DNA of 64,000 nucleotides from a virus. Under the pieces are notes generated by a model. The model worked only from the letters and a program-made list of their open reading frames with translations, was not told the DNA's origin and searched no databases. Below are positions 3,424 through 50,080 of this stretch, one piece after another. Positions within the stretch are counted from its first letter, which is position 1, and each line of letters opens with the position of its first letter. The position numbers were made by a program, and so were the translations under genes. The stretch covers positions 64,001 through 128,000 of the IMG/VR virus record IMGVR_UViG_3300045988_144812; one strand, written 5' to 3'.

Positions 3424-4278
3424 ATGAACATAAGATCCAAAATAATTAAGCTTAGGGATACAAAATACGAATTGGTTAAAGATGATTCTGATATCGTGGA
3501 AGGACGTACGCTTTATCGCATCAAAGCTTTGAAAGATTTTGGTTGTGTTAAAACTGATGATCTTGGTGGTTATATTGAGAAAGAAGAAAATCTTTCTCAT
3601 GAAGGAAATTGTTGGGTAGCTGGAAATGCTAAGGTATATGGTGATGCTACAGTAATTGAAAATGCTCTTGTTTCTGATGGTGCCATTGTTAAAGATAGGG
3701 CGATCATTGGAGATATGGCTTTTATTGGGGATGGAGCCGTTATTTCTAATAAAGCATATATTCGCGGGATGGCTATCGTTGTTGAAAATGCTAAAGTAGG
3801 TGGTGAAGTAGACGTCTCTGATAACTCCTATATTGATGGAAATGCTTTTATTAAAGGTGAGGGTTTTGTTTGTAGTAATACCTATATTGGTGGTGATACT
3901 GATATTGATGGTAATTTCGAAATAAGTAGTTGTACAATTACCGGTGGACAAATTAATGGCACTAACGTGGTTATCAATGACGGATCTTCTATCTTTAGTG
4001 GTACTAATATCACTGGTAATGTTACTGTAAACGGTAGTGCTGTTATTAACTTTAAGTTAGAACACACAACTGATTACTTCACCTATCGTGATCCGGCCCG
4101 ACCACATGTAATTGTTACCGCTGCGATGAAAGAAGACATTTGGAATGTTGGTGGGTTCTCTGGAACTGCTAAAGAATTCATCGAATATGGCTACAACATG
4201 ACCGATACTAATGGTAAATCTAATGAAGAAATGGTTGAATACCATAACAATTTAAAATCTAAATACTGGGGTAAATAA
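3424..4278 (+). CDS. beta-helix repeat protein (hexapeptide/bactofilin-like repeats), paralog 1
   Basis: Long run of short G-x-A/V-x-V/I repeats (GNAKVYGDATVIENALVSDGAIVKDRAIIGD...). Confidence 0.7.
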   Translation: MNIRSKIIKLRDTKYELVKDDSDIVEGRTLYRIKALKDFGCVKTDDLGGYIEKEENLSHEGNCWVAGNAKVYGDATVIENALVSDGAIVKDRAIIGDMAFIGDGAVISNKAYIRGMAIVVENAKVGGEVDVSDNSYIDGNAFIKGEGFVCSNTYIGGDTDIDGNFEISSCTITGGQINGTNVVINDGSSIFSGTNITGNVTVNGSAVINFKLEHTTDYFTYRDPARPHVIVTAAMKEDIWNVGGFSGTAKEFIEYGYNMTDTNGKSNEEMVEYHNNLKSKYWGK

Positions 4279-4279
4279 G

Positions 4280-5113
4280 ATGGCTACTAAAAAAGAGAAC
4301 ACTAAAAAGTTCGAATTGGTTGAAAACTTGACCCTTTATTACAATGGCGGTCTTTTGTATCGTATTCGAGCATTGAAAAATTTTGGAGATGTTAAGAAAG
4401 GCGACATTGGTGGTTGGGTAGAATCAGAAAAGAACTTATCTCAAAAAGGTCTTTGTTGGATCTACGACGATGCGAAAGTAAGTGCTAAAGCACGCGTATC
4501 TGAAAATGCTCGTGTAATGGATTTAGCTGTTGTAGATTCTAATGCGCGTGTTCATGGTACGGCTGGCGTTTGTGATCTTTCCCATGTTACTGACTATGCA
4601 ACGGTTAGAGGAAATTCTATTGTAAGAGATAAATCATGTGTGATGGAATTTGGTTTAGTAGACGACCATGCCTTTTTATACGATAGGGCAACTGTATCTG
4701 GCCGTGCACAAGTAGTTGGATTTGCTCGTATTTGCGATGACACTCGAGTGACTAATGGTTCTATTGTAAGTGGTAATTCATTTATCGTCGGTAATGGATA
4801 TATTGGTGGTGACGTTATTGTCAATGGACATGAACGAATTGACTTTACCGTTATTCGATCAACTGACTACGTTACTTATAAGGATCCTTTTGTTGATGAT
4901 GTTTACTACACTGCGAGTACATCTCGGGATATCTGGCTAAGTAATGATAACAATGCCTGGGCAAATAGTGGTAGAGGTATTTCATCAGAATCTTTCATTG
5001 GTCGATGTATCGGTACGTATGAAAGTAATACTAATGAATATTTACCTATCTCTCGAGCAGACTATATTAAAGGTATTGTGGAAAACCACAAGAAACTTTT
5101 TAATATAGATTAA
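4280..5113 (+). CDS. beta-helix repeat protein, paralog 2
   Basis: Same architecture and the same LYRI(K/R)ALK(D/N)FG motif as 3424-4278. Translationally coupled to it (TAAGATG). Confidence 0.7.
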   Translation: MATKKENTKKFELVENLTLYYNGGLLYRIRALKNFGDVKKGDIGGWVESEKNLSQKGLCWIYDDAKVSAKARVSENARVMDLAVVDSNARVHGTAGVCDLSHVTDYATVRGNSIVRDKSCVMEFGLVDDHAFLYDRATVSGRAQVVGFARICDDTRVTNGSIVSGNSFIVGNGYIGGDVIVNGHERIDFTVIRSTDYVTYKDPFVDDVYYTASTSRDIWLSNDNNAWANSGRGISSESFIGRCIGTYESNTNEYLPISRADYIKGIVENHKKLFNID

Positions 5114-5127
5114 TACATTAATTAGAT

Positions 5128-5167
5128 ACTCTCTTACCATTACAGGTAAGAGAGTGTTTCTTTTTTG
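5128..5167 (+). terminator. intrinsic terminator
   Basis: ACTCTCTTACC/GGTAAGAGAGT followed by TTTCTTTTTT. Confidence 0.8.
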
Positions 5168-5186
5168 TATTCTAAAAAATCTCAGA

Positions 5187-5207
5187 TATATACTATTAAC
5201 GTGAACC
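5187..5207 (+). promoter_or_regulatory. promoter-like motif
   Basis: TATATACTATTAACGTGAACC, after a terminator and upstream of 5262. Confidence 0.5.
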
Positions 5208-5261
5208 TGGGAAGGAAATCTTCCTATCTTATTCATCTTAACCTTGTAAAGGAGTTTTATC

Positions 5262-5735
5262 ATGTTGAACAATATTCTGAAATTTGTTATTGGTGGTGCA
5301 GTAGTAGTTGGCGTAATCGCTGCTATCGATGCAGTGAAAGAAGCCAACGAAGCTGCTAAAAAAGCAGCAGATGCAAAAGTCGATGCGGAGTTACGCCGCG
5401 TCGAGCGAGCAATCGATGCAGAGTTTAAACGGACTCAAGAAGAGTTCGTTAAAGCTCGAGAAGAGTTGGATCCAACGATCCACTCAATCAGTGAAGACTA
5501 CGCGAAAGCGTGTCTTCGCCAGTACGGCATGGTACTCTCCATGCTAAAAGCCAGCCCAGATAACGAGATCGTTCTGGGTATGGCCGCAGAGCGCCGTCGC
5601 AATCTGTTCGAAGTCCAACGCGACTTCGCAGTGCGCTTTGCAAATACTGGCCTCGAGTCAGTAGACCTCGCAAGAGGTTACACCGATCAGGAAGTGATCG
5701 ATTTGGTTAAGCGTGAGTTGGCAGCTCGTGCTTAA
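5262..5735 (+). CDS. membrane-anchored Ala/Glu-rich coiled-coil protein
   Basis: N-terminal hydrophobic helix FVIGGAVVVGVIAAI. Own promoter, RBS and terminator. Visibly G+C-richer than its neighbours. Confidence 0.7.
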   Translation: MLNNILKFVIGGAVVVGVIAAIDAVKEANEAAKKAADAKVDAELRRVERAIDAEFKRTQEEFVKAREELDPTIHSISEDYAKACLRQYGMVLSMLKASPDNEIVLGMAAERRRNLFEVQRDFAVRFANTGLESVDLARGYTDQEVIDLVKRELAARA

Positions 5736-5744
5736 TTAACAACG

Positions 5745-5775
5745 CCCTAGTACCAATAGTGGTACTAGGGTTTTC
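5745..5775 (+). terminator. intrinsic terminator
   Basis: CCCTAGTACC/GGTACTAGGG followed by TTTT. Confidence 0.7.
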
Positions 5776-5804
5776 TATTCTAACTTTGTAAAAGGAATTG
5801 TATC

Positions 5805-6257
5805 ATGTGTAAATTCAATAAAGAACTGAAAAACGAATTGGTTGAAGCTCTCGGCCTCACTGAGGAACAATTAGAACTGCTCGACGAAAGCAAGTTCGAT
5901 GATCTCTTAACCCAAGCGATCAAGAAAAACCTCGACCAATCTGAACAATCTGAAACTGAATCTCAAACTGAAAAGGAAACTGAAATGAATGTTGTAAACG
6001 CTATCGAAACCCCTGTTGTTGAAACTCCAGCTGAAACTACTATTGCTTCTACTACTCTGGCAAAAGTGAAAAGCCCTGCTGCTCGCAAAGCAATTAGCAT
6101 CTTCGCTAAAGTAGCCGCAGGCGTACTCTTCGGTGGTGCATGTGCAGTAGCCGGTGCAGCTCACCACAAAGAGGTGAACAAAACCATTAAGAAAGCCCGC
6201 AAAAAAGTGGGCAAAGTGATTCCAGCTCTCGCTCCAAAACCTTGGTATAAATTCTAA
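5805..6257 (+). CDS. acidic protein with a C-terminal membrane helix
   Basis: RBS AAAAGGA; hydrophobic helix AKVAAGVLFGGACAVAGAA; terminator at 6269-6307. Confidence 0.65.
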   Translation: MCKFNKELKNELVEALGLTEEQLELLDESKFDDLLTQAIKKNLDQSEQSETESQTEKETEMNVVNAIETPVVETPAETTIASTTLAKVKSPAARKAISIFAKVAAGVLFGGACAVAGAAHHKEVNKTIKKARKKVGKVIPALAPKPWYKF

Positions 6258-6268
6258 GGTTCAAGAAA

Positions 6269-6307
6269 GAAACTCCTCTCCCCAAAAGGGAGGAGTTTCT
6301 TTTTTTG
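6269..6307 (+). terminator. intrinsic terminator
   Basis: AAACTCCTCTCCCC/GGGAGGAGTTT followed by a T-run. Confidence 0.8.
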
Positions 6308-6350
6308 TTTCTATTCTATCTTTTGATATTTTTTAGTAAAGGAAATTAAC

Positions 6351-6998
6351 ATGTACTTGTCTGATAACCAAATCATTGGCTCTTCTTTAAACTCTGAAAA
6401 ACCACTCATTAAACCTTTCTCCCCAGGTAGAGAAATCGTTTACGTAAATGACGAAACCAAAAACATCTCTCATGGTTTATCTCAAAATGGATACGATATC
6501 CGATTGGGTTCTGATGTAGAATTTTTTATCTCTGGTAGCCACACTCAAAACTCGGACGATACCAGTACACGTTTAGATCCATTTGGTACTAAGAATGTAT
6601 TAACTGCCCGTATGGATCCGTACAAAAAAGAATTGGTTAATTACAAAGACTATAAAGGCAATATTAGTCAAAAAGAAGTAAAGTGCTGGTTAATCCATCC
6701 TGGTCAATTTGTACTGGCTCATTCTTTAGAAAAATTCTGCATTCCTGAAAATGTCACTGGTTTCTTATTCTGTAAAAGTAGTTATGCTCGCTTGGGAATG
6801 AATATGGCCCCTACTGTTTTGAAATCAGGTTGGGAGGGCCAGTTGGTATTAGAAATTTATAACCAAACAAACCATGCATTAATGATCTACGAAGGTTGTG
6901 GTATTGGTACAATTTACTTTGCAGAACACCATGAAAGTACCAATGATCCTTATAAAGGAAAGTATCATCATCAAGAAGGTGTCGTAAAGGCTCGATAA
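6351..6998 (+). CDS. dcd: dCTP deaminase / dUTPase-superfamily enzyme
   Basis: GYDIRLG, KSSYARLGM and GWEGQLVLEIYN motifs, typical of Dcd-family trimeric dUTPase-fold enzymes. Confidence 0.8.
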   Translation: MYLSDNQIIGSSLNSEKPLIKPFSPGREIVYVNDETKNISHGLSQNGYDIRLGSDVEFFISGSHTQNSDDTSTRLDPFGTKNVLTARMDPYKKELVNYKDYKGNISQKEVKCWLIHPGQFVLAHSLEKFCIPENVTGFLFCKSSYARLGMNMAPTVLKSGWEGQLVLEIYNQTNHALMIYEGCGIGTIYFAEHHESTNDPYKGKYHHQEGVVKAR

Positions 6999-7414
6999 TG
7001 AGTAAATACACGTGGTCTAGGTTCGGTGGGTACGAATGTTCATCTAAGGGAGATAAGCGCTTCAGCGCGTTCTATGCGCGTTTAAACGATGGTCTCTCTA
7101 TTGAGCATCATTTCCAATGTTTTATCAAAGGCTATTCTTCTATTGAAGAAGGAAAAGGAAACCCACCTTTAAGAGAAATGCCTATCGAGGAAAGCTATCG
7201 TCTTTATAAGGAATTATGGAGACAATATTTAGATAGCAAACCTTGGTTATGGATTGAATTGAAAAACAATGTAGAAAGGTGTAATAGCACTGTTTCGGAT
7301 ATGTTTGGTACTGGTGAAATAAATCAAGCAAGAGCTTTGTGTGATTTATTAAATGAGAGATTTACTGATGATGATTTCAGTGGTTTCGAGGTACTAAGTT
7401 TATTTAAGGAGTAA
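6998..7414 (+). CDS. NADAR (YbiA/DUF1768)-like protein
   Basis: RFSAFYARLNDGLSIEHHFQ resembles FSNF...DG....SEHYFQ. DMFGTGEINQARALCDLLNER resembles D.YWG.G...N.LG.LLM.LR of E. coli YbiA. By eye only. Confidence 0.5.
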   Translation: MSKYTWSRFGGYECSSKGDKRFSAFYARLNDGLSIEHHFQCFIKGYSSIEEGKGNPPLREMPIEESYRLYKELWRQYLDSKPWLWIELKNNVERCNSTVSDMFGTGEINQARALCDLLNERFTDDDFSGFEVLSLFKE

Positions 7415-7417
7415 TTA

Positions 7418-7807
7418 ATGAATACTTTATCAGAAGCAGCAAGACGTTTTATCGGAGACATCCATTCTTTAGCCAAGTGTTTTGAAAGTGGTGCTAAGTT
7501 TAGTGGTTTCACTATGCCGATCACCATTATTGATACATGTGTTACACCTTCTCGTTCTTTTAATCCATTTCGATATGGTGGTACCTACTTTATTGTTATT
7601 AATAATAAAGTAAGTTTCCTTTATCGGAAAAAAGGTTTGTTTACTCTTGGATCTTATGTAGATGCAGTTGAAGGTATTGAATTATCAAAACAAGAACTGC
7701 ACTATGTTGCTTTAGAGATTGATAATCTTTTTAAAGCAATTAAGAAAAATGAGTATTACTCTAAAGAACTTGGAGACATTTATGTCATTAAAGATAATTG
7801 TATGTAA
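7418..7807 (+). CDS. hypothetical protein
   Basis: 129 aa; ATG 4 nt after the previous stop. Confidence 0.6.
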   Translation: MNTLSEAARRFIGDIHSLAKCFESGAKFSGFTMPITIIDTCVTPSRSFNPFRYGGTYFIVINNKVSFLYRKKGLFTLGSYVDAVEGIELSKQELHYVALEIDNLFKAIKKNEYYSKELGDIYVIKDNCM

Positions 7808-8351
7808 AAGCAGTAACGATGTTATCGGTATCAATAACAGCATTCCTTGGAATCTGCCTGAAGACTTGATTTACTTTAAAGAACAAACCAAGAATTCAGT
7901 AGTTGTCATGGGTCGTAATACTTGGGAAAGTCTACCCAACCGACCTTTACCTGATCGTATTAATGTCATTATTAGTAATAACCCATCTCGTTATTTCTTG
8001 AACGATGCTGAGTACGATGATCCAAGTATTAAGCATATTTTCCAACTGGATAATGATGATGCTTTTGCTGAGAAAATTCAGGAATTAGAAAAAGAACACG
8101 GAGACGTGTGGATTATTGGTGGACAGAAAGTTTACGATCTGGCTCTAGATGTTTTGGATTTTGATGAAATCCATGTCACGAACATCTTACGAGAAGTCGT
8201 TCCTGAAAATGAAAGCGATGAGGTTGCTTATTTCCCTATGGAAAAAGTATTAGCTAAATACATTCCTGAAGAAGAACATGCTGAAGTATTTACTTCAGTA
8301 CATCTTCCTGATCGCGAACGCTATACAATTACTCGTTATTTTCCTAAATAA
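7782..8351 (+). CDS. folA: dihydrofolate reductase
   Basis: IGINNSIPWNLPEDLIYFKEQT...VVMGRNTWESLP...PLPDRINVIIS...IIGGQKVY. The start was moved to the ATG giving MSLKIIV. Confidence 0.85.
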   Translation: MSLKIIVCKSSNDVIGINNSIPWNLPEDLIYFKEQTKNSVVVMGRNTWESLPNRPLPDRINVIISNNPSRYFLNDAEYDDPSIKHIFQLDNDDAFAEKIQELEKEHGDVWIIGGQKVYDLALDVLDFDEIHVTNILREVVPENESDEVAYFPMEKVLAKYIPEEEHAEVFTSVHLPDRERYTITRYFPK

Positions 8352-8357
8352 AAGAAT

Positions 8358-8398
8358 TACTCCTCTGCCCTTATGGGTGGAGGAGTATTTTCTTTTTT
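8358..8398 (+). terminator. intrinsic terminator
   Basis: TACTCCTCTGCCC/GGGTGGAGGAGTA followed by a T-run. Confidence 0.8.
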
Positions 8399-8441
8399 AG
8401 TTATTTTATCATCTGAACAATTAAATAAAAGGATGATGAAA

Positions 8442-9413
8442 ATGCCGGTACGTGTTATTGAAGAAGACATGTTCAATGATAAAGAAAGTGTTTATTGTGT
8501 TCCTGTAAATACTCAAGGTATTGCCGGAAAAGGTTTAGCACTATATTTTAAACAAAAAAGCCCAATGTGGTATAACCAATATAGAGAAGCATGTAAGAAT
8601 GATGAAATCAATAAAAGAAAATATCATTTATACTCTACGGCAACAGAAACGTTAGTAAGTATTCCTACTAAAATTTCACCTTACGATGATTCATGTATTG
8701 ACTTGATTATTGAGGGTTTAAAAGCATTTGAAAAAGATTACGATAAAACAGAAGGTTTTCATTGGATTACCCAATTAAGATTACCCGCATTAGGTTGTGG
8801 TTGTGGTAACTTAAGATGGGTGGATATTGAAGATAGAATCATCGAAGAATTAAAAGATAGTGAAGTTGAATTTATATTCTGTATTGAAAGTAAGCATCGT
8901 CCTGATCGATGTGCTGAAAGATTCATGAATAACCATCTGTTTTTTAAAGGTGATCACATTCTTGGCATTACTTATCGATTTGATCTAAACTTATTAAGTC
9001 CTAAAGGAATCATGAAGAAGTATCCAAATGTAATGTGTTTCATTATTGATTGGATTGCTCACTATCTTGATATTGATCCTGAAGTATATAAAACAGAATC
9101 CCAAATGGTTTCTGGTATTAAATCTGCTCTTATCGATTATTTTAATCGATACGGTTTTGTAAAAGACGGAATTGATTTTAGAAGACTAATCATTGAGAAA
9201 ATGATTGAGGGTAAGAAAACTCACTACTATTCGGATGCTAACTTTAAAAAGTATTTAGATGACTTAAACGAAGCTGATGTGTTCTTTGCCTATTGCGGAT
9301 ATGATTTCCCAGCTATTTTAGGCATTAACATGGATTTGTCTAATAAGCATTTATTAGATAGGAAGCTTTGGAGTGGATCTAACTATCTGGGTAAACTTTT
9401 ATCTAGATTATAA
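8442..9413 (+). CDS. macrodomain (TARG1/DarG-like) protein with an uncharacterised C-terminal domain
   Basis: VYCVPVNTQGIAGKGLALYFKQK resembles the TARG1-type motif (MGAGIAVLFKKKF). The C-terminal tail WSGSNYLGKLLSRL is reminiscent of NADAR. Start chosen after RBS AAAAGGA; 8433 is also possible. Confidence 0.6.
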   Translation: MPVRVIEEDMFNDKESVYCVPVNTQGIAGKGLALYFKQKSPMWYNQYREACKNDEINKRKYHLYSTATETLVSIPTKISPYDDSCIDLIIEGLKAFEKDYDKTEGFHWITQLRLPALGCGCGNLRWVDIEDRIIEELKDSEVEFIFCIESKHRPDRCAERFMNNHLFFKGDHILGITYRFDLNLLSPKGIMKKYPNVMCFIIDWIAHYLDIDPEVYKTESQMVSGIKSALIDYFNRYGFVKDGIDFRRLIIEKMIEGKKTHYYSDANFKKYLDDLNEADVFFAYCGYDFPAILGINMDLSNKHLLDRKLWSGSNYLGKLLSRL

Positions 9414-9415
9414 AC

Positions 9416-9434
9416 ATATACTATTAAATTGAAG
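9416..9434 (+). promoter_or_regulatory. promoter-like motif
   Basis: ATATACTATTAAATTGAAG, upstream of 9461. Confidence 0.5.
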
Positions 9435-9460
9435 ATATCTAATTATAAGGATTTTTAAAC

Positions 9461-9937
9461 ATGGATAATATAAGTAATAATTTGGTAATGATTGATGTCT
9501 CGTCATTACCAAAAACTCCAGAAGAAGAAAAGTTATTTAAAGAAGCGAAAGAGTATTTAGAAAATGAATTTGAAATTCCTATTTCTACAATATTCAAAAT
9601 CATGATTAACGGTGTAAGTGGATTTGTTATCGATAACGATTACGAGTATGTCGAGAACTTTGTACGTAATTATTTAGATCTACCCAAAGAAGAGCAAAAG
9701 AAAATATTCGTTAATTCAGACGGTAAACAAGTATTCGTTTGGGATGATGTACAAACAGGTGCCGAAGAAGATCACTTATCTTTTCTGGCAAGATTATTTA
9801 TTCGAGAAATTAAGGAAAAGAATAGTTTATTACTTATCGACTATTCTGTTCGTTGTAAAGAAACCTCACTGGTTACTTTGAGTCAAGAATCCGTTCATCC
9901 TGACCACATCGTTGTCTATCTTGATAAAGAGGAATAA
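9461..9937 (+). CDS. hypothetical protein
   Basis: Promoter motif at 9416-9434 and RBS AAGGA; 158 aa. Confidence 0.7.
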   Translation: MDNISNNLVMIDVSSLPKTPEEEKLFKEAKEYLENEFEIPISTIFKIMINGVSGFVIDNDYEYVENFVRNYLDLPKEEQKKIFVNSDGKQVFVWDDVQTGAEEDHLSFLARLFIREIKEKNSLLLIDYSVRCKETSLVTLSQESVHPDHIVVYLDKEE

Positions 9938-9938
9938 G

Positions 9939-10643
9939 ATGTTTCAATTAGCTAAGCAAGAGTTTATCTTGCCTACTGAATTTTTAGTTAATCTAAACAT
10001 AATGGATATTTATCAAGAATGCATCATGCTGTTCGGTAAAGATCCATTTAGGGAACGTTTCAACCATCCTTCGTGTTTTAACTACAATCCTAGTAAACCG
10101 ATATCAGAAGAGGTATTTGAACAAATTTCTTATAGTCTTCTAAGTTCTGTAACCATTACATACAAATACGTTTATCTTGCGAGCATTCCTATTAATGAAA
10201 TGGTGATTAAGGAAATGATGGTATCGTTATGGGATTCTTTCTTTAATGCTTATTTTGATTATAATCCTGAAGACTTAATGGTAGATAACGAGTATCTATT
10301 CAGTGTTAGTGATGATGAAAATAGTGGTTATTCTAATTACATTATGGATAATAAAAATAATGTGGTTACTTTAAAATATGGTTTGGAAGAAGATGAAGCA
10401 ATATTTACATCCTTATTCTTCTTAAGGTATATTAATTATTTAGCCAATCTTTTTCCAAAAATATTTAATTACATTTTACAAAATCCTAAATTGGAACCAG
10501 AAGTTATTCCAAGGACGGTAGATCCGTATACGTATTATCCGAGAACCCATAAAAGAATAGCGGTACCTACAAATTACATTAATGACATTATGATTAACAC
10601 TCATTTGGAGTATGACATCGTATGCAAGACAATAACTATTTAA
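9939..10643 (+). CDS. hypothetical protein
   Basis: ATG after GAGGAATAAG, coupled to the previous stop. The track ORF begins earlier at a TTG. Confidence 0.65.
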   Translation: MFQLAKQEFILPTEFLVNLNIMDIYQECIMLFGKDPFRERFNHPSCFNYNPSKPISEEVFEQISYSLLSSVTITYKYVYLASIPINEMVIKEMMVSLWDSFFNAYFDYNPEDLMVDNEYLFSVSDDENSGYSNYIMDNKNNVVTLKYGLEEDEAIFTSLFFLRYINYLANLFPKIFNYILQNPKLEPEVIPRTVDPYTYYPRTHKRIAVPTNYINDIMINTHLEYDIVCKTITI

Positions 10644-11068
10644 TCGGACATTTAGATCAGGCCAATCTTCCATTATGGGAGGTTGGTCGATCTTATTATC
10701 TTGACCTTTCTGAGATATTCAGCATAACCAGTTCTTTAATTACAAAGAAAACTGGATTAATGTCTCTTAACTTTATTCTGGATATTCTTCCCGAATATAA
10801 TCTTTCTAATATATCTTCTCTTAATGAATTAGTAGATCAATCCATTTTAGAATTTGCTCTAAAAGTTTCTGGATCATCTAATAAAATAGACGAGGGTATT
10901 ATCCGCATATTCTTTGGAAAATTATTCGGATATCTTATAGAGTTGAACATTATCAAGTTTGGAATAACTAAGAAAGTATTCTTTAAACAAGAGAATGATC
11001 CTAACTTAAATCAGAAACAATCTAACATTGTATTCGGCACGATATACACTGTATTAGTGGAATATTAA
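10622..11068 (+). CDS. hypothetical protein
   Basis: 148 aa; overlaps the previous gene by 22 nt; start uncertain. Confidence 0.55.
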   Translation: MQDNNYLIGHLDQANLPLWEVGRSYYLDLSEIFSITSSLITKKTGLMSLNFILDILPEYNLSNISSLNELVDQSILEFALKVSGSSNKIDEGIIRIFFGKLFGYLIELNIIKFGITKKVFFKQENDPNLNQKQSNIVFGTIYTVLVEY

Positions 11069-11070
11069 AA

Positions 11071-11568
11071 ATGAACCAAAAAAGAATCCGTTTATTGGTA
11101 AACATGGGGCCTCTATTTAGAGTGGTTGATGCATTAACGGCTAATCAGTTTATCATTAACCATAAACAGGTCATTAATGAATTATTATTAACTGTAAGTA
11201 CTCGAGAGGTTAACCGTCATTATAACCAAATCGATACCCATATACCGATGTGTAAAGATGACATGAGTATTCAGCTAACCTCTGAAACTTTATATCAAAA
11301 ACTTATTAATGAAACCTACCTTAGTCATGATAAGGCTGTTACAATCTGTAATACTTATATCGATTGCATGTATCAATTTTTAATCAATATACATGAACTT
11401 ATGAGCGGGGAAGAAATCATTAAAGTGTTTGGTCATGTTCCTACATTATACTACTACTTAACTGTAGAAGAATATTTAGGAGATGGTCAATTTATCCTTG
11501 CCGAGTTAGTACCTGGTCAGGATCAGATGGAAGTCGACACAAGTCCTTGGTTTTATCTTAATAACTGA
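11071..11568 (+). CDS. hypothetical protein
   Basis: 165 aa; ATG 3 nt after the previous stop. Confidence 0.65.
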   Translation: MNQKRIRLLVNMGPLFRVVDALTANQFIINHKQVINELLLTVSTREVNRHYNQIDTHIPMCKDDMSIQLTSETLYQKLINETYLSHDKAVTICNTYIDCMYQFLINIHELMSGEEIIKVFGHVPTLYYYLTVEEYLGDGQFILAELVPGQDQMEVDTSPWFYLNN

Positions 11569-11614
11569 TTAGGTATTATTTTATTTAATAAAATCTTACT
11601 TACTCTTTTAACAA

Positions 11615-11800
11615 ATGAAACCATTTTCTAATCGTCACATTTCGGAATTAAATGAATCCATTACACAAAAACATTATAGTCGTATCTTAAAGGATCTTGA
11701 ACCTTCTAAAAAATACAAGACCAATAAGCGGCTCGCGAAGATGAGAATAAAGTATCATCATCTCGAAACGCTTAATAAGAAAAATACAGACGATATCTAG
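11615..11800 (+). CDS. possible small basic protein
   Basis: 61 aa, Lys/Arg-rich, but no convincing RBS. Confidence 0.3.
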   Translation: MKPFSNRHISELNESITQKHYSRILKDLEPSKKYKTNKRLAKMRIKYHHLETLNKKNTDDI

Positions 11801-12004
11801 ATATGAAGAAGTATCTATTTGATCTTTCGGGTAGGTCATGCTATTTCTTTACTCCTAAGTATGTTTGTTCCATTGGTGATTATGTTAGATAGTCACGTAC
11901 AGGTTATTCTTTATAGAGTAATCTGTGCGGGATTATTTACCGGACGGTGGTCTTTAGTCCCATGACATTCTTATTTGTTTTCATATGTCCCTTTACATTA
12001 ACAG

Positions 12005-12045
12005 CTCTACTACTCCTTAACGGGAGTAGTAGAGTTTCTTTTTGT
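12005..12045 (+). terminator. intrinsic terminator
   Basis: CTCTACTACTCC/GGAGTAGTAGAG followed by TTTCTTTTT. Confidence 0.8.
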
Positions 12046-12049
12046 TTTA

Positions 12050-12077
12050 TTTTAAATCTATACTATTTACGTGTAAT
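12050..12077 (+). promoter_or_regulatory. promoter-like motif
   Basis: TTTTAAATCTATACTATTTACGTGTAAT, directly after a terminator. Confidence 0.5.
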
Positions 12078-12130
12078 AGGATTTTAAATTTAATCCTGCC
12101 TTAATCTAACTTAATAAAAAGGAAAATGCT

Positions 12131-12901
12131 ATGTCTAGTAATGATAAACGAAAAGCCGCTAAAGCTAAAAAACGTAAAGAAAACTTACGTCAACGAAAAT
12201 TGAAAACAGGAAGTGCTATTAATCCAAACAACATGATGGTGTTCAATAAAACTTCTACAGGTTTGGATGTTATCCATCGAGGTAGTGTATCTGGTTCTAT
12301 TGCAACAGATATTCTAAACGAACAAGAAACTCAACCTATCGATCCTAAGAATCGAGAGGACTTGATTAGTCAAATCAAAAAGAATATCGAGCTTTTCTAT
12401 ACAGGCACTAAAAAAGAAAGTGCAATTTCTGACTTTGCTTTCTTAACAGAAAACATCTACCTGACTAAGGTATTATTAGAGCTTGCTGAAAAAGAAGTAA
12501 AAGCAGAAGATCCAAATGATCAAATGCTTATCGACATTAATAACAACATGCTTAAAGAAACCCTTAAAGGCATGACTGAGATTTGTAAGAATCTTTATCA
12601 TCAAGCTGTAGAAGGTAAAGAATCCTTATACTTTGTAAACTCTTTGGAATTAAATGCCATTAATATTTCTAAGAAATATTTAGAACAAACAAATATTCTT
12701 TTGCAATACATTGATGTTGGTTTGTTTCAAAAAGGCTGTCGTTTGACTATTTCACGTTTAGGTAATCGAAACTATAAAGATGATCCTGATGTGAAGTATT
12801 TCAGTATTCGTGAAGGTTATGGTTTAATTAAAGACATGATCAAACATGAGAATAAAAAACGACAAGAGGGTAAGCAGAATGACGTTAAGCAAATCCACTG
12901 A
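12131..12901 (+). CDS. hypothetical protein with a basic N-terminus
   Basis: Promoter motif at 12050-12077 and RBS AAAAGGAAAA; 256 aa. Confidence 0.75.
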   Translation: MSSNDKRKAAKAKKRKENLRQRKLKTGSAINPNNMMVFNKTSTGLDVIHRGSVSGSIATDILNEQETQPIDPKNREDLISQIKKNIELFYTGTKKESAISDFAFLTENIYLTKVLLELAEKEVKAEDPNDQMLIDINNNMLKETLKGMTEICKNLYHQAVEGKESLYFVNSLELNAINISKKYLEQTNILLQYIDVGLFQKGCRLTISRLGNRNYKDDPDVKYFSIREGYGLIKDMIKHENKKRQEGKQNDVKQIH

Positions 12902-20084: not shown

Positions 20085-20168
20085 TGGTGGAGGGAGTAGG
20101 ATTCGAACCTACGAACCTTTCGGGGCGGATTTACAGTCCGCTGGATTTAACCACTCTCCAATCCCTCC
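20085..20168 (-). tRNA. tRNA-Tyr (anticodon GTA), class II with a long variable arm, CCA encoded
   Basis: Cloverleaf built by hand. Acceptor GGAGGGA/TCCCTCC. Anticodon stem GCGGA/TCCGC with loop CTGTAAA. T arm GTAGG-TTCGAAT-CCTAC. 3-bp D stem. Confidence 0.9.
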
Positions 20169-39972: not shown

Positions 39973-40464
39973 ATGTTACCGACTATTTCAGATTGTCCTA
40001 AATATAGCCATGCTTATTTATTCAGACTGAATCCTATTAATCAATTTCTGATTAAAAAGTATCCTAGAGAAGAAGACAATAGCTTCTTAGCAAGATACTG
40101 GACGGCTTATCTTTTTGCGTCCTATATTCTTATAGATAATAATTACTCGGATAAAATAGCACCTATGGTTGTTACACCTGAAGAATTCTATAAAATTCCA
40201 AATCCAAGCATCAGTAGCTGTTTTAACGAATGGTTAGAGATGTATAAGAAAGATCGAATATTCAAATCGACTTTTGTCATGGATAGTATTCCTGGGGTTT
40301 CAGAACCTATCTTTATTGAAGTTGATCCTATTCCTGAAGATGCTGTTATTGCATTTACTGGAATGTTAGACAAAATTAAAACAGATGGGATGATCAGTCA
40401 GAAAGACATTGAAAAGGAAATTGAAGATGGACTCGATATACTTCAGAATGGTGGAACTTGTTGA
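39973..40464 (+). CDS. hypothetical protein
   Basis: RBS TAGGAGAA; 163 aa. Confidence 0.7.
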   Translation: MLPTISDCPKYSHAYLFRLNPINQFLIKKYPREEDNSFLARYWTAYLFASYILIDNNYSDKIAPMVVTPEEFYKIPNPSISSCFNEWLEMYKKDRIFKSTFVMDSIPGVSEPIFIEVDPIPEDAVIAFTGMLDKIKTDGMISQKDIEKEIEDGLDILQNGGTC

Positions 40465-42370
40465 TTTAATCAATAAATATTCCTATCATTACTATACCTT
40501 AGATGATCCTTTGGTTTCAGATAAGGAATACGACAAGCTTTATAAGGAACTCTCTCAATTAGAGGAACAACATCCTGACTTAGTGTTAGATGATTCCCCT
40601 GTTAAGAGAATAGGAGATAAAGTTTCACCTACTTTAAGTAAGGTCAAGCATAAACACATTATGGGTTCTTTAAAGAACTGTTTTGATGTAAATGATCTTA
40701 ATAAGTTCTTTTCATTTCTACCGAATCAAACAGAACTCATGGTCCAGTCTAAGTTCGATGGTTTGGCATTAGAGTTAGTTTATCGACAAGGTAAATTAAT
40801 TTCAGCCTCTACTCGTGGTGACGGGTTTATTGGTGAAGATGTGTTAAAGAATGTATTGACTATAACTTCTATTCCTAAAGAAATTCCTATTCAGAAAGAA
40901 ACTATTGTTTATGGCGAGGTCTTGATGTTCATAGATGTTTTTAATCAACTGAATCAAGAACGACTAGCTAGAGGAGAGAAACCCTTTTCTAATCCTCGTA
41001 ATGCTGCCGCAGGGTCATTGAGACAATTAGATCCAGAAATTACTCGTCGACGTCAATTACAATTCATTCCATATACAATAGAACCTAAACAAACCTATAA
41101 ATCTTATTCAGAAATGACCAGTGCTTTATCTAGACTAGGTTTCAATACTTTTGTAAAAGGTATTGTTACTTATCCTTTAGATAAAGAAGTATTAAGCAAG
41201 ATTGTTTCTGAGCATAAGGTTACTCGTAAAACAGATCAGTACGATACGGATGGTATTGTATTTAAGGTAAATGATTTAAGTTATGCGAAACCTAATGAAG
41301 GTAAATTACCTAATTGGGCTTGCGCGTTTAAATTAGACCCAGAGTCAGAAACTACCCAAGTCGTTGATATTGTCGTACAGATTGGTAGAACAGGAGCGAT
41401 CACACCCGTTGCTATTCTTACACCAGTATTAGTATCAGGTTCAATAGTTTCTAGAGCAACTCTAAACAATGCTTCTTTTATTAAGCAGCTAGATGTAAGA
41501 ATTGGTGATTTTGTACAAGTAAGAAAAGCAGCAGAAATCATTCCTGAAATTATTTCTGTGGATTTAGACAAGAGAGATCCTGATAGTAAACCATTTGTCT
41601 TTCCAGATAAATGTCCATGTTGTCAATCTCAACTAGTTACAGAAGAAACCATTACTCGTTGCATGAATAAAGAATGTGAAGAACAGCTAATCCAGAACAT
41701 ATTGCATTTTGCTTCGCGGGATGGAATGGATATTAAAGGCGTGGATGAATTCATTATTCGAGCTTTATTTAAAGCGAAAGCAATTTATTATCCAATTCAT
41801 TTATACCATCTGTCTTTAGAAGATTTAGAAAAAGTATTAGGTAAAGGATTAACTGCTAAAAATGCTTTTGAAGCTATTGAAGCTTCTAGATATACGACTC
41901 CTGAGAAATTCTTATATTCCTTAGGAATCCGTTTCGTAGGTGAAAGAATGTCTAAGCTTTTATTAAAAGAGTATAAAGACATTATGCGTTTATTAGACGT
42001 TACTTACGAGGAATTAGTAAATCTAGAAGGTGTAGGACCTATAAAAGCTAAAGCCATTTACGAATATCTTTCTAATCCAAAGAATCGTGATTTGGTTCTA
42101 AACTATTTAGTAGAATTTAAGTTTAAGAAAGAAAAGAAGCTTTCTAATAAATTAGATCAGAAGACATTCTTGATTACCGGTACGTTAACCAGACCTAGAA
42201 AGGAAATAGAGAAGCTGATTACGGATAATGGCGGTACAATGTTATCGTCAGTTAGTAGTAAGCTAAACTATTTAATTGTAGGTGAGAATGCCGGATCGAA
42301 ATTAGAGAAAGCTAAGAAGTTAGGTATTGAAATCATTGAAGAAAAAGATTTAAATGATTTCTTAAAGTAA
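40427..42370 (+). CDS. ligA: NAD-dependent DNA ligase
   Basis: YYTLDDPLVSDKEYDKLY, the adenylation motif SKFDGLA, a Cys4 zinc finger (CPCCQSQL...CMNKEC), an HhH region, and a C-terminal BRCT-like FLITGTL. Confidence 0.9.
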   Translation: MDSIYFRMVELVDLINKYSYHYYTLDDPLVSDKEYDKLYKELSQLEEQHPDLVLDDSPVKRIGDKVSPTLSKVKHKHIMGSLKNCFDVNDLNKFFSFLPNQTELMVQSKFDGLALELVYRQGKLISASTRGDGFIGEDVLKNVLTITSIPKEIPIQKETIVYGEVLMFIDVFNQLNQERLARGEKPFSNPRNAAAGSLRQLDPEITRRRQLQFIPYTIEPKQTYKSYSEMTSALSRLGFNTFVKGIVTYPLDKEVLSKIVSEHKVTRKTDQYDTDGIVFKVNDLSYAKPNEGKLPNWACAFKLDPESETTQVVDIVVQIGRTGAITPVAILTPVLVSGSIVSRATLNNASFIKQLDVRIGDFVQVRKAAEIIPEIISVDLDKRDPDSKPFVFPDKCPCCQSQLVTEETITRCMNKECEEQLIQNILHFASRDGMDIKGVDEFIIRALFKAKAIYYPIHLYHLSLEDLEKVLGKGLTAKNAFEAIEASRYTTPEKFLYSLGIRFVGERMSKLLLKEYKDIMRLLDVTYEELVNLEGVGPIKAKAIYEYLSNPKNRDLVLNYLVEFKFKKEKKLSNKLDQKTFLITGTLTRPRKEIEKLITDNGGTMLSSVSSKLNYLIVGENAGSKLEKAKKLGIEIIEEKDLNDFLK

Positions 42371-45765: not shown

Positions 45766-47571
45766 TTAGATTTTACAAGCACCACCAGCACAACCATCAT
45801 CCAGACTATCTTGAGTATCATTAGATCCATCGTTTGTATGGTGATAGTACAATGTTTTAATACCATACTTATACGCAATCAACAATTCCTTCAATAGTTC
45901 TTTCATAGGTACTTTGCCATTAGGATAATTGATAGGATTATAACGAGTATTCGTAGAAATAGATTGATCTACAAATTTTTGCATAATCGCTACTAATTTT
46001 AACATTCCGATATTGTTACTGTCGTACCACAAGTATTCGTAACTAGAATCTAAATTCTTATAATCAGGAACGACTTGTTTTAAAATACCATCTTTAGAAG
46101 CTTTAATCGTAATAGGACCACGAGGTAAATCAATACCATTAGTGGCATTACTTACTTGACTACTGCTTTCAGAAGGCATTAGACTAGTCAGCGTAGCATT
46201 ACGTAAACCATATTGGACAATATCCTTACGCAAGCTTTCCCAATCTAATTTATATTCAAACGAAGCATATTCGTCGATAGACTTTTTATAAGTGTCTATT
46301 GGTAAAACGCCTTTAGAATATTTAGTGTTTTCAAACGCACCACACTTACCTTTTTCTTTGGCTAATTGTACTGATGATTTTAATGCATAGTACTGAATAG
46401 CCTCGAATAATTCATGAGTCATCTGATGACCACTGCTATTACTATACCGAGCACCATTCTTAGCTAAGTAATAAGCGTAGTTAATCACACCAATACCTAA
46501 TGGACGATACTTATCTACAGAATTACGAGCTGCTTTAACAGGATAGTTTTGATAGTCTAATACAGAATCAAGAGCACGTACAATTAAGTCCATAGACTCT
46601 TCAATCTCTTCAAGATTATCTTTATCCACTGTACCCAGATTCAAAGCACCTAGAGTGCACAAAGCAATTTCACCTTCTTCATCAGAAATATTGTTTAATG
46701 GCTTGATAGGTAAACCAATTTCCATGCAGTTACCAGTCATGATGTTGTTAAATACAACAGAGTTATTTTTTGGTTCAAATACACAGAATGTATCGTGTTT
46801 ACCATCTAACTTTGTAACTGATTTTACAATAGACTGGTCTACTTTAATAATACCTAATTGAGTCGATGGGGTATTCCATTTAGACAGTTTCACACCATGA
46901 ACTAATTCTTTAGTAGGTATACGAGTACCATCTTCAAGAATCCATTTATGTTCACTAGTACAATCTAAATAACGACCATCTACTAATTCTACACGATATA
47001 AATCTTGATCAGTATTTGTTTTAACAAACTCAATACCTTCAGACCATTCAAAACCATTCCAGATAGTGAATTTCTCACCAATATAATCGCCAATCTTAAC
47101 CATGCCTTTATCAGTTAATACTTCGGTATCTCCTGAAACACACAAGTTACTGGTATAAATAGTTGCTTCTTTTTCAATAAATGAAGAATGGGTATTCATG
47201 TGGTCAGTATTCATGATGTAAATACGACCAGTATTAGCACGCTCTGACATCAACAATGTAAACAATTCAGTAGCTTTAATAGTCTTCTTAGGAATAAGAG
47301 GATTTGCTTCAGCTTCTAAATAAAGTTTTTCAAATAACTCTTGGTCGTTAAAGTAAGCATCGTATAAACCCTCTACAGAATGAGGTGACAATAAAGTAAT
47401 GTCTTTATCTTCAATCAGACGCTGATACATTAATTTATTAATCTGCACACCGTAATCCAATTGGCGAATACGGTTGTCTTCTACACCACGGTTATTTTTT
47501 AATACCAGTAATGATTCTACTTCTAAATGCCAGATAGGGTAAAATAAAGTTGCAGCACCACCACGAATCCC
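45766..47571 (-). CDS. nrdA: ribonucleotide reductase large subunit, exon 2 (contains the mini-intein)
   Basis: GIRGGAATLFYPIWHLEVESLLVLKNNRG ... GACKI is colinear with E. coli NrdA, apart from a 138-aa insertion at SNL|C. Confidence 0.9.
   Translation of the reverse strand, partial: GIRGGAATLFYPIWHLEVESLLVLKNNRGVEDNRIRQLDYGVQINKLMYQRLIEDKDITLLSPHSVEGLYDAYFNDQELFEKLYLEAEANPLIPKKTIKATELFTLLMSERANTGRIYIMNTDHMNTHSSFIEKEATIYTSNLCVSGDTEVLTDKGMVKIGDYIGEKFTIWNGFEWSEGIEFVKTNTDQDLYRVELVDGRYLDCTSEHKWILEDGTRIPTKELVHGVKLSKWNTPSTQLGIIKVDQSIVKSVTKLDGKHDTFCVFEPKNNSVVFNNIMTGNCMEIGLPIKPLNNISDEEGEIALCTLGALNLGTVDKDNLEEIEESMDLIVRALDSVLDYQNYPVKAARNSVDKYRPLGIGVINYAYYLAKNGARYSNSSGHQMTHELFEAIQYYALKSSVQLAKEKGKCGAFENTKYSKGVLPIDTYKKSIDEYASFEYKLDWESLRKDIVQYGLRNATLTSLMPSESSSQVSNATNGIDLPRGPITIKASKDGILKQVVPDYKNLDSSYEYLWYDSNNIGMLKLVAIMQKFVDQSISTNTRYNPINYPNGKVPMKELLKELLIAYKYGIKTLYYHHTNDGSNDTQDSLDDGCAGGACKI
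46729..47142 (-). mobile_element. mini-intein (138 aa, no endonuclease domain) at the catalytic Cys of NrdA
   Basis: Begins CVSGDTEVL, has TSEH (block B), and ends ...FNNIMTGN followed by C. Removing it restores SNLCMEIGLP (E. coli SNLCLEIALP). Confidence 0.8.
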
Positions 47572-47929
47572 CAAATACCTTCAATACGAGTCGTTAATTC
47601 GTATTCTACCAATTAAGATAGCTCTATGTCACCATAGACGTTGAGACTATATCTTCTTCTCCAGCATTACCTGGTAAGATTCCAAACATCAGGAAACTAC
47701 ATAGAGGATTACATTAATCCACTGTAGTAGTCGCTCTATTTCCCCAAACTCCGTTACAGAGACCTCACTTGAGTGGTACGTCTTTCGACTAGTCGTTGAA
47801 CCTTCCCTAGATGTATTTATATACAATTAGGTATTGGCTGCTGATTGTCTATACTTTAATATAGATTTCCCAGCAATTAAGAGCGATATTTTTAACTCTG
47901 TATTTCTACAGAGCTGGGCAGGATTGTTT
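47572..47929 (-). ncRNA. group I intron (no homing endonuclease ORF) in nrdA
   Basis: Joining 47930 to 47571 restores ...KSCSQG|GIRGGAAT. Exon 1 ends in U and the intron ends in G. A P1 pairing (GGGU with GCCC) is possible. Contains GNRA hairpins. Confidence 0.75.
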
Positions 47930-50080
47930 ACCCTGGGAACATGATTTAACTGCAGCTTGAAACATTTTCCAAAATGGAATAACGCCAGTATGGATAGCTT
48001 CACCTTTACGAATTTCACTACCTAATGCACGAATACGACCACCATTAATACCAATTCCAGCACGTTGAGAAATATACTTAACAATAGAGGAAGTAGCTGC
48101 ATTAATACTATCCAGACTATCGTCACAATCAATTACAGTGCAGTTATGTACTCCGATACTACCGGCAGTAAATGAATGTTCATTTTCTACTTCGATATCG
48201 TAAACCATCGGGTTAGTCTCATTAAGTAAATGAATGGCTAAGGTAACTTTAGAGAAACAATAACCATCTTTAAAGACGACATTATTTCTTATATACTTAG
48301 AATGTTCTTCAGATCCAGGAACTGTAACCATTACTGAACTTTCTAAATAATTCGCGTATCTTGCTTCATCATTACCTAAATATTCTTTTATAAGACTTAC
48401 ATTAGAACCGATTGAGAAGAATATTAAGTAACTTACCTCTCTAGTAATAACCTCAGAAATTGCTCCATTTGCTCTTACAACAGGGACTTGTTTACCAGGT
48501 TCTCTGAATGAGACACTGGGTTTTAATCCCAAACGTAGAGATATTTCAGTAAGTTGTTTAGATAGGAATTTATTACTTAGGCTTATAGTGATTCCTCTAC
48601 CGTCTAAAAAACCATCGGTTTCAATAACACCTAGCAACAAACTTAATTGTTTGTCGTGTTCCGAATTCATTACTTCTTTACTGATTTTCTTCTTATTGAA
48701 ACCAGTACCGAGATGATAAAGAATGAATTCTTTAAATACGTAGGAGTGTACTGATACTTTGCAACTATGGTCGTTGTCGTTATAGTTAACAGAACAATTT
48801 AAACCGAAGTTATCTTTTATAGTGTTAACTATAAATTCGATCTTATGCTTATCTTTAGCATTCATGGTAAACGCCACACAATGCACATTTTTATCACAAT
48901 GACCGTTTCCAATATACATACCCATTAATCTAAATATATCGTTATTTAAAACAATATCATTTTTAACAGGTTTTATCTTATCATCGTACTCACCCGACCT
49001 AACACGTACGTCTGATGTGGTTTTACGAATATAGCCATCATCACAAAGAGTATATCTTGGATTGTTTACATAATCGATCATTCTAATATTAGTGAATGGA
49101 ATGATTTCATTATTAAAAGGAATAGAAACATAATCACCTATTTTAATATCTTTAGCTTCCACCCATTTAGGCTCTGACTCACCTTTAGGCAAGGTCCAAA
49201 CAAGATGGTCTTCTGTAGACAAGAAATCATTTCGATGACTTAATGTCGATTTTAACTTGATGAAATTTTCACCAGTATATTGTCGGCATGTAAGTGTTTT
49301 TACAGGAGAGAACGACCCTTCCTTAGTTAAAACCATATCTCCAACATTTACATCTTCGATATATTTGTAACCTTCGCTAGTAAGTACTTGCTGGTCAGCA
49401 GGGAAACAACTACTAAACTGACGAGTAGGTGTACGTACACCTGCCATGATTGGAGTAGGCAATGAAATCTTAAACAATGACAAAGCATCGTAGAATTTCT
49501 TAATATATCCTAAACGAGTTTCTTTAGGGTAGTCAGCAAACAAACAAGTAGGAATTAAAACAAAAGCTACTTGAGGAGATTCGTACACTCGTTTAGTCAC
49601 TCGGTTTTGCACCAAGTATTTACTTTCCATTTGTTTAATACCGGCATAAGCGAAATTTAAATCTCGGGTATGGTCTACAAAGGACTCAATGGCATTAATT
49701 TCTTCCTCGGTGTATTTCTCTAAAATCTCTTTATCGTAAACACCTTTTTCAATCATTGACTGAATATGTTTATATAATCGAGTAGGTACGTATTCACCAT
49801 AAGCAATCTTACGAATATGGAACAGTGCTAAACGCGCAGCCATGTACTGATAATCGGGATATTCTGTAGAGATTAAATCAGCAGCAGATTTTACCAATGT
49901 TTCATGGATATCGGTAGTTGAGATACCATTATAGAATTGAATATGACTATTGATTTCTACTTGGGAACTAGAAACATCTAAACATTCAGCAGCCCATTCT
50001 ACTACACGGTGAATTTTAGCAATATCCAATGGTTCAAAATGGCCATCGCGTTTCTTTACTTTAATTTTTTGTTCAGTCAT
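47930..50080 (-). CDS. nrdA: ribonucleotide reductase large subunit, exon 1 (contains the LAGLIDADG intein)
   Basis: ATP-cone N-terminus, then PTPIMAGVRTPTRQFSS|C ... C|TVIDCDDSLDSINA...KSCSQG, colinear with E. coli NrdA. Confidence 0.9.
48143..49408 (-). mobile_element. intein (422 aa) with a LAGLIDADG-type endonuclease domain
   Basis: Begins CFPADQQVLT, has TEDH (block B), LMGMYIGNGH and LLLGVIETDGFLDG, and ends YDIEVENEHSFTAGSIGVHN followed by C. It sits at the position of E. coli Cys225. Confidence 0.85.

Follow-up and report, generated by a model that had tools for sequence, protein, structure and literature searches.

The analyzed window, a 64,000-nucleotide stretch of an IMG/VR virus record (IMGVR_UViG_3300045988_144812, record positions 64,001–128,000), carries two open reading frames (ORFs), ORF-A and ORF-B. 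The original prediction had described them, respectively, as a NADAR-like gene and as a TARG1/DarG-type macrodomain gene, and had interpreted their products as two candidate erasers of DNA ADP-ribosylation. Both ORFs were confirmed on the plus strand, ORF-A at 6998..7414 (138 amino acids, aa) and ORF-B with two candidate starts, 8373 and 8442, and an end at 9413. The ATG at 8373 was rejected as the start of ORF-B, since it sits inside a hairpin stem and the homologues of ORF-B begin with MPVR, which favors the start at 8442. The 323 residues of ORF-B thus defined comprise two parts, a DarG/AdfM-type macrodomain assigned from DarG models, PDB matches and alignment (residues 1–149, 8442..8888) and a divergent NADAR fold assigned from a predicted model, Foldseek and hhalign (residues 150–323, 8889..9413 including the stop codon; hereinafter, the C-domain).

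ORF-A belongs to a four-gene unit, dcd–ORF-A–orf129–dihydrofolate reductase (DHFR), which is bracketed by hairpins at 6263–6305 and 8358–8387. The 5′ limit of this unit, upstream of dcd, is a terminator-like hairpin with an 18-bp stem and a T-run (6263..6305, plus strand). It is followed, on the same strand, by the dCTP deaminase gene dcd (6351..6998, 215 aa; Pfam DCD, E-value = 4.8e-23; phrog_1663, 2.2e-44), the stop codon of which overlaps the start of ORF-A, by ORF-A itself (phrog_9995, the family of phiKZ PHIKZ082.1), by orf129 (7418..7807, 129 aa) and by the DHFR gene (7782..8351, 189 aa; Pfam DHFR_1, 3.6e-31). The product of orf129 had no detectable family, with no match in Pfam, PHROGs, PADLOC or NCBIfam, and the ORF overlaps the start of the DHFR gene; at the same position, the related contig L012 contains a 132-aa ORF and an additional 193-aa ORF. 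The most likely DHFR start is the ATG at 7782, which gives a protein of 189 aa and matches the L012 homologue. The second terminator-like hairpin (8358..8397, plus strand) consists of a 13-bp stem with seven GC pairs (8358–8387) followed by TTTTCTTTTT and lies between the DHFR gene and ORF-B. Consequently, of the two genes that had been placed between dcd and DHFR, ORF-A is indeed located there, whereas ORF-B lies downstream of DHFR and past the hairpin, so the two candidates are probably not in one operon and the idea of a shared early transcript is weakened. The gene order was retained in contigs L012 and L013, with one extra ORF in the relative of 75% identity, and the adjacency of DHFR and the macrodomain–NADAR gene was also found in a much more distant contig, L014.

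The N-terminal half of ORF-B

Residues 4–149 of ORF-B matched the DarG model of PADLOC (E-value = 1.5e-27) and the antitoxin_DarG model of NCBIfam (3.4e-24). These DarG hidden Markov models (HMMs) were aligned only over positions 3–141 of 329 and 5–149 of 338, and because only the macrodomain half is matched, the NCBIfam score was under the full-length equivalog cut-off. The best PDB sequence matches were 7omu, 5m31 and 5m3i (about 1e-10), the latter two of which we take to be the DarG macrodomains of T. aquaticus and M. tuberculosis; TARG1 was matched in the same search with an E-value of only 0.3, and the Pfam Macro model with 0.22. The identity of ORF-B as a macrodomain protein was thereby placed on firmer ground than Pfam alone could offer. 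ORF-B also matched PHROG 335, labelled “phosphatase”, at 3e-17.

Alignment of ORF-B with the DarG chains and with phiKZ gp104 (AdfM; 30% identity to ORF-B, E-value = 2e-14) revealed invariant residues N23, G26/G29/G31, P75-T76-K77, G118 and G122. N23 sits in a V-N-T motif, within the stretch VNTQGIAGKGLALYFKQK (residues 22–39) that had suggested the macrodomain in the first place, and K77 sits in P-T-K. N23 of ORF-B was aligned with N23 of AdfM, the mutation of which lowered the activity of that enzyme (PMC13309987), and the counterpart of K77 was the lysine of the PTK motif in the DarG chain of T. aquaticus. The DarG catalytic lysine has been named as K80 (PMC11543638), and we infer that, in the tagged T. 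aquaticus DarG PDB chain, it corresponds to the initial Lys of PTKK. Judged by its sequence, the N-terminal half of ORF-B is thus clearly a DarG/AdfM-type macrodomain in which the catalytic Asn and Lys positions are kept.

A C-terminal toxin-binding domain of the DarG type was ruled out for ORF-B, in which the DarG models stop at about residue 149, and no member of the DarT family was found among the neighboring genes scanned with Pfam. Given the lack of both a DarT gene and a DarG-type C-terminal domain, ORF-B is read as a putative orphan antitoxin-like enzyme similar to AdfM. A different fusion is present in the Salmonella phage SA002 (L016, record positions 110007–112309), where a DarG-like macrodomain with another C-terminal extension is encoded between two YAcAr/SLOG genes, making this cultured jumbo phage another carrier of a Macro-centered gene cluster.

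The C-terminal half of ORF-B

The second half of ORF-B had been regarded as a domain of about 170 aa of unknown function. In the present analysis, this 174-aa region was assigned to a divergent NADAR fold. NADAR-like strings are visible in it by eye (FFKGD… and W-SGSNYLGKLL). Its AlphaFold2 (AF2) model had a predicted local distance difference test score (pLDDT) of 91, and in the Foldseek comparison of this model with the PDB, the top match was 8bau, a Phytophthora NADAR (E-value = 1.6e-3, probability 1.0, template modeling (TM) scores 0.57/0.53), as a sole outlier, the second-best match having an E-value of 0.77. The hhalign comparison with a YbiA-type NADAR alignment gave a probability of 76% (E-value = 2e-5), whereas the positive control, T4 gp30.3 (AdfN), gave 89% (2e-6) against the same alignment. 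The C-domain profile detected only 10 relatives among 1.84 billion representative proteins. The C-domain was C-terminal in nine of them, namely, in eight proteins of about 300–350 aa and in one C-terminal fragment of 131 aa, while the tenth, P0134, reached at 5.7e-4, is a bona fide Pfam NADAR (3e-38). The Pfam model PF08719 did not match ORF-B itself, and it matched the family member P0131 at 3.7e-6, under the gathering score. When the C-domain was compared by tblastn with 50,697 phage genomes, no close homologue was detected, and the 25 weak matches all belonged to Listeria phages; among the matches listed, most of the Listeria genes were annotated as DUF1768/NADAR, and the others were genes without a name that occupy this locus in related phages. 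Four independent tests, based on a predicted model and on sequence comparisons (the profile support being indirect), agree on a NADAR fold for the C-domain.

The positions essential for NADAR catalysis have been replaced in this domain. In the global profile alignment, M198 and I205 occupy the positions of YbiA E48 and K55, which correspond to the essential residues E88 and K95 of E. coli C7 (PMC11543638); at the later acidic positions (C7 D171/E173), the C-domain has a gap opposite YbiA E125 and Phe opposite YbiA D130. The replacement of the canonical catalytic positions extends to every member of the C-domain family, with no conservation of acidic residues or Lys there. The residues that are conserved are mainly Gly and aromatics, and the C-terminal W-G-x-N-x-L-G motif is shared with NADARs. 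Relative to the homologue of 75% identity, the macrodomain and the C-domain had ratios of nonsynonymous to synonymous substitutions (dN/dS) of 0.08 and 0.11, respectively; these values are rough owing to the saturation of dS (1.7–2.1), and within this limit, both halves of ORF-B are under strong constraint. In the sequences compared, the C-domain is conserved and always attached to this macrodomain type. Since its active-site residues are replaced under strong constraint, it may be read as a functional but non-catalytic NADAR derivative and is probably an accessory module.

The ORF-A family

In total, 134 homologues of ORF-A were found, and the family comprises phiKZ PHIKZ082.1 and PhiPA3 gp084 as well as proteins of N4-like and Rhizobium phages. 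The invariant residues of the family are Y12, E13, S15, G18, D19, R21, E36, K44, D101, Q110 and N119. The strings that had prompted the NADAR-like designation of ORF-A are present, FSAFYA…DGLSIEHHFQ at residues 22–40 and D101-MFGTG…LLNER further on, and E36, K44 and D101 resemble the Glu/Lys/Asp set of NADARs. It should be noted that the spacing in the main family is Glu-x7-Lys, compared with x6 in NADARs, and that x6 within the ORF-A family occurs only in the branch of P0116 and P0118.

The profile and fold comparisons did not bear out this designation. ORF-A had no match in Pfam, PADLOC or NCBIfam, and 119 of the 121 sequences scanned (ORF-A and 120 relatives) likewise had no Pfam match. The exceptions were P0116 and P0118, which matched PF22397 (NADAR-DarT1; compared through Pfam hmmscan) below threshold, with E-values of 1.1e-4 and 3.1e-3 and scores of 22 and 17.5 bits, respectively. 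In hhalign, ORF-A was aligned with NADARs over 20 columns only (E-value = 0.19, probability 0.3%, in contrast to 89% for the AdfN control), a brief local motif without statistical significance by itself, while the P0116/P0118 branch gave an E-value of 0.002 over 36 columns located on the motif; both with and without AF2-derived secondary structure, the hhalign results for ORF-A were negative or sub-threshold. The profile search of the PDB with ORF-A returned nothing. The AF2 model of ORF-A (pLDDT 90) had no Foldseek match in the PDB with an E-value under 3, even though the library contained the NADAR structures 2b3w and 8bau. The top 50 matches in BFVD included nine proteins annotated as NADAR/YbiA and seven as DUF4326, every one of them sub-threshold (E-values of 0.27–8, best TM 0.46–0.55); apart from such matches, BFVD yielded members of the ORF-A family itself only. 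Some members of this family are fused to DUF4326, a domain reported in fusions with NADAR, Macro and SLOG domains (PMC9503650). A narrow HMM based on YbiA was discarded as having no power, since even the C-domain family scored about 0–8 bits with it. Homology between ORF-A and the C-domain of ORF-B was also rejected (hhalign probability 0.1%). Consequently, ORF-A as a NADAR was rejected at the profile level, the Pfam, PADLOC, NCBIfam, PDB HMM and hhalign comparisons all being negative or sub-threshold; the small phage proteins of the ORF-A family, which are widespread, stand apart, and only weak hints of an affinity to NADARs, at best a remote one, are left.

The genes of the ORF-A family are repeatedly located directly downstream of genes for enzymes of nucleotide or DNA synthesis, often with a stop/start overlap, and in the window ORF-A appears to be translationally coupled to dCTP deaminase. 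The homologue in contig L017 (3559–4378) overlaps the end of a dCMP/cytidine deaminase gene, that in L019 (3484–4399) follows an HD_4 phosphohydrolase gene and is close to an RtcB gene, with an HNH endonuclease gene in between, and that of phiKZ starts 3 nucleotides past the DNA polymerase gene (L011, 3082–5363). In the N4-like contigs L021, L022 and L023, the homologues lie at the far left, between N4 gp1-like and gp2-like genes. The far-left early region is a typical place for host-takeover and anti-defense genes. The neighbor of the homologue in L022 encodes a YAcAr/SLOG protein, and an Acb2/Tad1-hairpin gene lies near that in L021. Members of the family were also found at integrase-adjacent sites. 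The recurrent position behind genes for enzymes of nucleotide or DNA synthesis hints at a link of the ORF-A family to nucleotide metabolism.

Phage background and other features of the window

The source of the window is a phiKZ-like jumbo phage. Genes of the window include those for an RNA polymerase β subunit in split form (phrog_2962, 1e-109), for an S80 prohead protease (Pfam, 1.5e-57) and for a tail sheath protein about 30% identical to the sheaths of Burkholderia and Ralstonia jumbo phages, together with those for an NAD-dependent DNA ligase and a ribonucleotide reductase. The close relatives are metagenomic contigs only, of about 254 kb, and megablast of the region against the 50,697 phage genomes gave no match. 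The window gave no chimallin match, which, with a genome of roughly 255 kb, says nothing about whether the phage forms a nucleus.

Terminator-like hairpins are enriched at window positions 5000–12500 (16 found versus 3.5 expected), and those between gene blocks (5124, 5744, 6263, 8358, 10660 and 12003) suggest many short transcription units. Two adjacent genes upstream of the locus (3424–4278 and 4280–5113) encode β-solenoid proteins with hexapeptide/YdcK-type repeats, and one similar gene is kept upstream of the locus in L012. The large subunit of ribonucleotide reductase is split over two ORFs on the minus strand (45766–47574 and 47906–50080), the upstream piece containing an insert of several hundred residues that partly matches unrelated PHROGs and may be an intein or a homing-element insertion. 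A tRNA-Tyr gene (20085–20168) and a free-standing HNH endonuclease gene (56455–57789) are also located on the minus strand. The NAD-dependent ligase gene lies at 40409–42370; through its product, the phage depends on NAD+, a point that bears on conflicts over NAD and ADP-ribose (ADPr).

Discussion

One of the known systems closest to ORF-B is AdfM (phiKZ gp104), the chimallivirus anti-DarT macrodomain described in 2026, an enzyme that clears DNA of DarT2 marks and shields phiKZ (PMC13309987). Both are orphan DarG2-like macrodomains of phiKZ-like jumbo phages with Asn23, the PTK lysine and the glycine loops; AdfM, however, consists of about 160 aa and stands alone, whereas ORF-B has the additional 174-aa domain with the NADAR fold. 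DarG2 shares with ORF-B the two-domain layout, with the enzyme domain first, and the catalytic lysine, but its C-terminal domain binds DarT, while the C-terminus of ORF-B is different and NADAR-like in fold; moreover, DarTG2 loci contain an adjacent darT, and none was found among the scanned neighbors of ORF-B. The NADAR hydrolases (DarG1/E. coli C7 NADAR, YbiA and T4 AdfN gp30.3; PMC11543638, PMC11825919) have the same fold as the C-domain, in which, unlike in these enzymes, the Glu, the Lys and the later acidic residues are replaced across the small family, and ORF-A fails the profile tests that T4 AdfN passes. Viral tandem Macro–NADAR proteins (Iyer, Burroughs, Aravind; PMC9503650) resemble ORF-B in combining both superfamilies in one polypeptide of a large-genome virus, but a macrodomain of the DarG clade fused to a NADAR with a degenerate catalytic site is not among the proteins described in that survey. 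The non-enzymatic phage inhibitors AdfA and AdfB bind DarT (PMC11481870) and, by analogy, provide a precedent for neutralization by binding as one possible role of a dead NADAR; they have no sequence or fold relationship to the C-domain.

Thus, a phage NADAR (AdfN; PMC11825919, 2025), a phage macrodomain (AdfM; PMC13309987, 2026) and the tandem Macro–NADAR arrangement (PMC9503650) have already been published. New in the present analysis are the combination, in one very rare lineage (nine representatives besides one stand-alone NADAR among the 1.84 billion proteins), of a DarG-clade macrodomain and a degenerate NADAR, the reassignment of the NADAR fold from ORF-A to the C-terminal half of ORF-B and the singling out of the gp082.1 family as a candidate.

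We consider the most plausible reading, with a probability of roughly 0.6, to be that ORF-B is an enzyme of the AdfM kind, directed against DarTG2 and extended by a degenerate NADAR, and that ORF-A is a separate protein remote from NADARs. It builds on the domain identities, residue conservation, gene layout and synteny established here; the activities, the targets and the anti-DarTG role that it adds are predicted, that of the macrodomain from homology and the conserved catalytic residues. ORF-B is an orphan phage relative of the DarG2 antitoxin macrodomain, grouped with phiKZ AdfM, and its macrodomain would most likely strip from phage single-stranded DNA (ssDNA) the thymidine-linked ADP-ribose set by host DarT2-type toxins, which would keep phage replication going. 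The C-domain may serve as an accessory binding module for ADP-ribosylated DNA or ssDNA or, alternatively, for the DarT toxin, which would echo the DarG2 layout of an enzyme and a toxin-binding part. ORF-A may be either a remote NADAR-like hydrolase or an accessory of nucleotide metabolism.

Several points weigh against this reading. The Pfam Macro and NADAR models are both under threshold on ORF-B, the genomic context provides no DarT gene among the neighbors scanned, and dN/dS is known only roughly. The basis for regarding the C-domain as inactive is a remote alignment (17% identity) together with a predicted model, and K169, K258 and C285 are conserved in it, so a relocated active site is possible. 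In addition, soluble ADP-ribose derivatives and RNA ends can be substrates of macrodomains, and Iyer et al. (PMC9503650) have argued that the main role of phage Macro and NADAR domains concerns such substrates.

The latter view leads to an improbable alternative, in which ORF-B, and possibly ORF-A, would act not on ADP-ribosylated DNA but on small ADP-ribose-derived molecules, such as immune signals of the cyclic ADP-ribose type, ADPr-1''-phosphate or by-products of RNA repair. The same survey, in which tandem Macro–NADAR proteins were noted, assigned such a proposed role to the majority of the Macro, NADAR, SLOG and DUF4326 proteins of phages, and this role would suit the “phosphatase” label of PHROG 335, the SLOG/YAcAr genes flanking the related fusion protein of phage SA002 and the proximity of the L019 homologue of ORF-A to RtcB. 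However, it is specifically to the DarG clade that the macrodomain can be assigned (1e-24 to 1e-27), the TARG1 and Pfam Macro matches being weak, no SLOG, Nudix or ADP-ribosyltransferase genes were found beside ORF-B among the neighbors scanned, and AdfM, the DarG-like phage protein that has been tested, acts on DNA (PMC13309987). The two independent erasers of the original prediction, with ORF-A as an active NADAR removing the guanine marks of DarT1 and the ORF-B macrodomain removing the thymine marks of DarT2, are now unlikely as a pair. Homology speaks strongly for an AdfM-like eraser of DarT2-type damage but not for an active DarT1 eraser, the NADAR fold lying in ORF-B without the canonical catalytic residues. 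For ORF-A, the E36, K44 and D101 set resembles the residues named in PMC11543638, two divergent relatives approach PF22397, their branch has an hhalign E-value of 0.002, NADAR/YbiA and DUF4326 proteins recur among the BFVD matches, and members of the family are fused to DUF4326 or occur in the early part of N4-like contigs, in one case with a SLOG gene as neighbor; phage NADARs are also known to counter DarTG1 (PMC11825919). Against this stand the lack of Pfam NADAR matches in ORF-A and in 119 of the 121 sequences scanned, an hhalign probability of 0.3% where T4 AdfN reaches 89%, an empty PDB profile search, a Foldseek search that retrieved neither 2b3w nor 8bau, the x7 spacing of the main family and the sub-threshold level of each individual fold match.

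A somewhat less doubtful alternative concerns ORF-A alone, which would be an accessory of nucleotide metabolism or replication, such as a factor cooperating with pyrimidine deaminases or with the polymerase, with no link to ADP-ribose and only an incidental proximity to ORF-B. The overlap with the dCTP deaminase stop, the similar overlap with the deaminase gene in L017, the position after the phosphohydrolase gene in L019, the 3-nucleotide distance from the phiKZ DNA polymerase gene and the hairpin-bracketed dcd–ORF-A–orf129–DHFR operon are all in keeping with it, but the contexts of the family are heterogeneous (the N4-like early region and integrase-adjacent sites), the DUF4326 fusions point to the NAD/ADPr network (PMC9503650), and ORF-A matched no known nucleotide-metabolism fold. 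It may also be speculated, as a long shot, that ORF-B is a single-chain, dual-mode DarTG antagonist, in which the macrodomain would erase thymine marks, while the dead NADAR, as the remnant of an antitoxin of the DarG1 type, would either bind DarT1 and sequester it or tether the enzyme to ADP-ribosylated ssDNA, and that ORF-A/phiKZ gp082.1 represents an unrecognized minimal NADAR clade widespread in phiKZ-like and N4-like phages.

The results correct a tempting motif-based annotation, that of ORF-A as a NADAR, and leave the gp082.1 family as a conserved, uncharacterized early or replication-linked protein that is worth testing. The reversal of DNA ADP-ribosylation is an active front of the phage–host conflict, and ORF-B brings to it an architecture absent from the AdfN and AdfM papers, namely, a DarG-clade macrodomain in permanent fusion with a NADAR-type domain that is devoid of the canonical catalytic residues and yet under purifying selection. 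If the dead NADAR does bind DarT or modified DNA, this would mean that phages recycle antitoxin folds as non-catalytic decoys, and ORF-B would also be a compact reagent for probing both DarTG branches.

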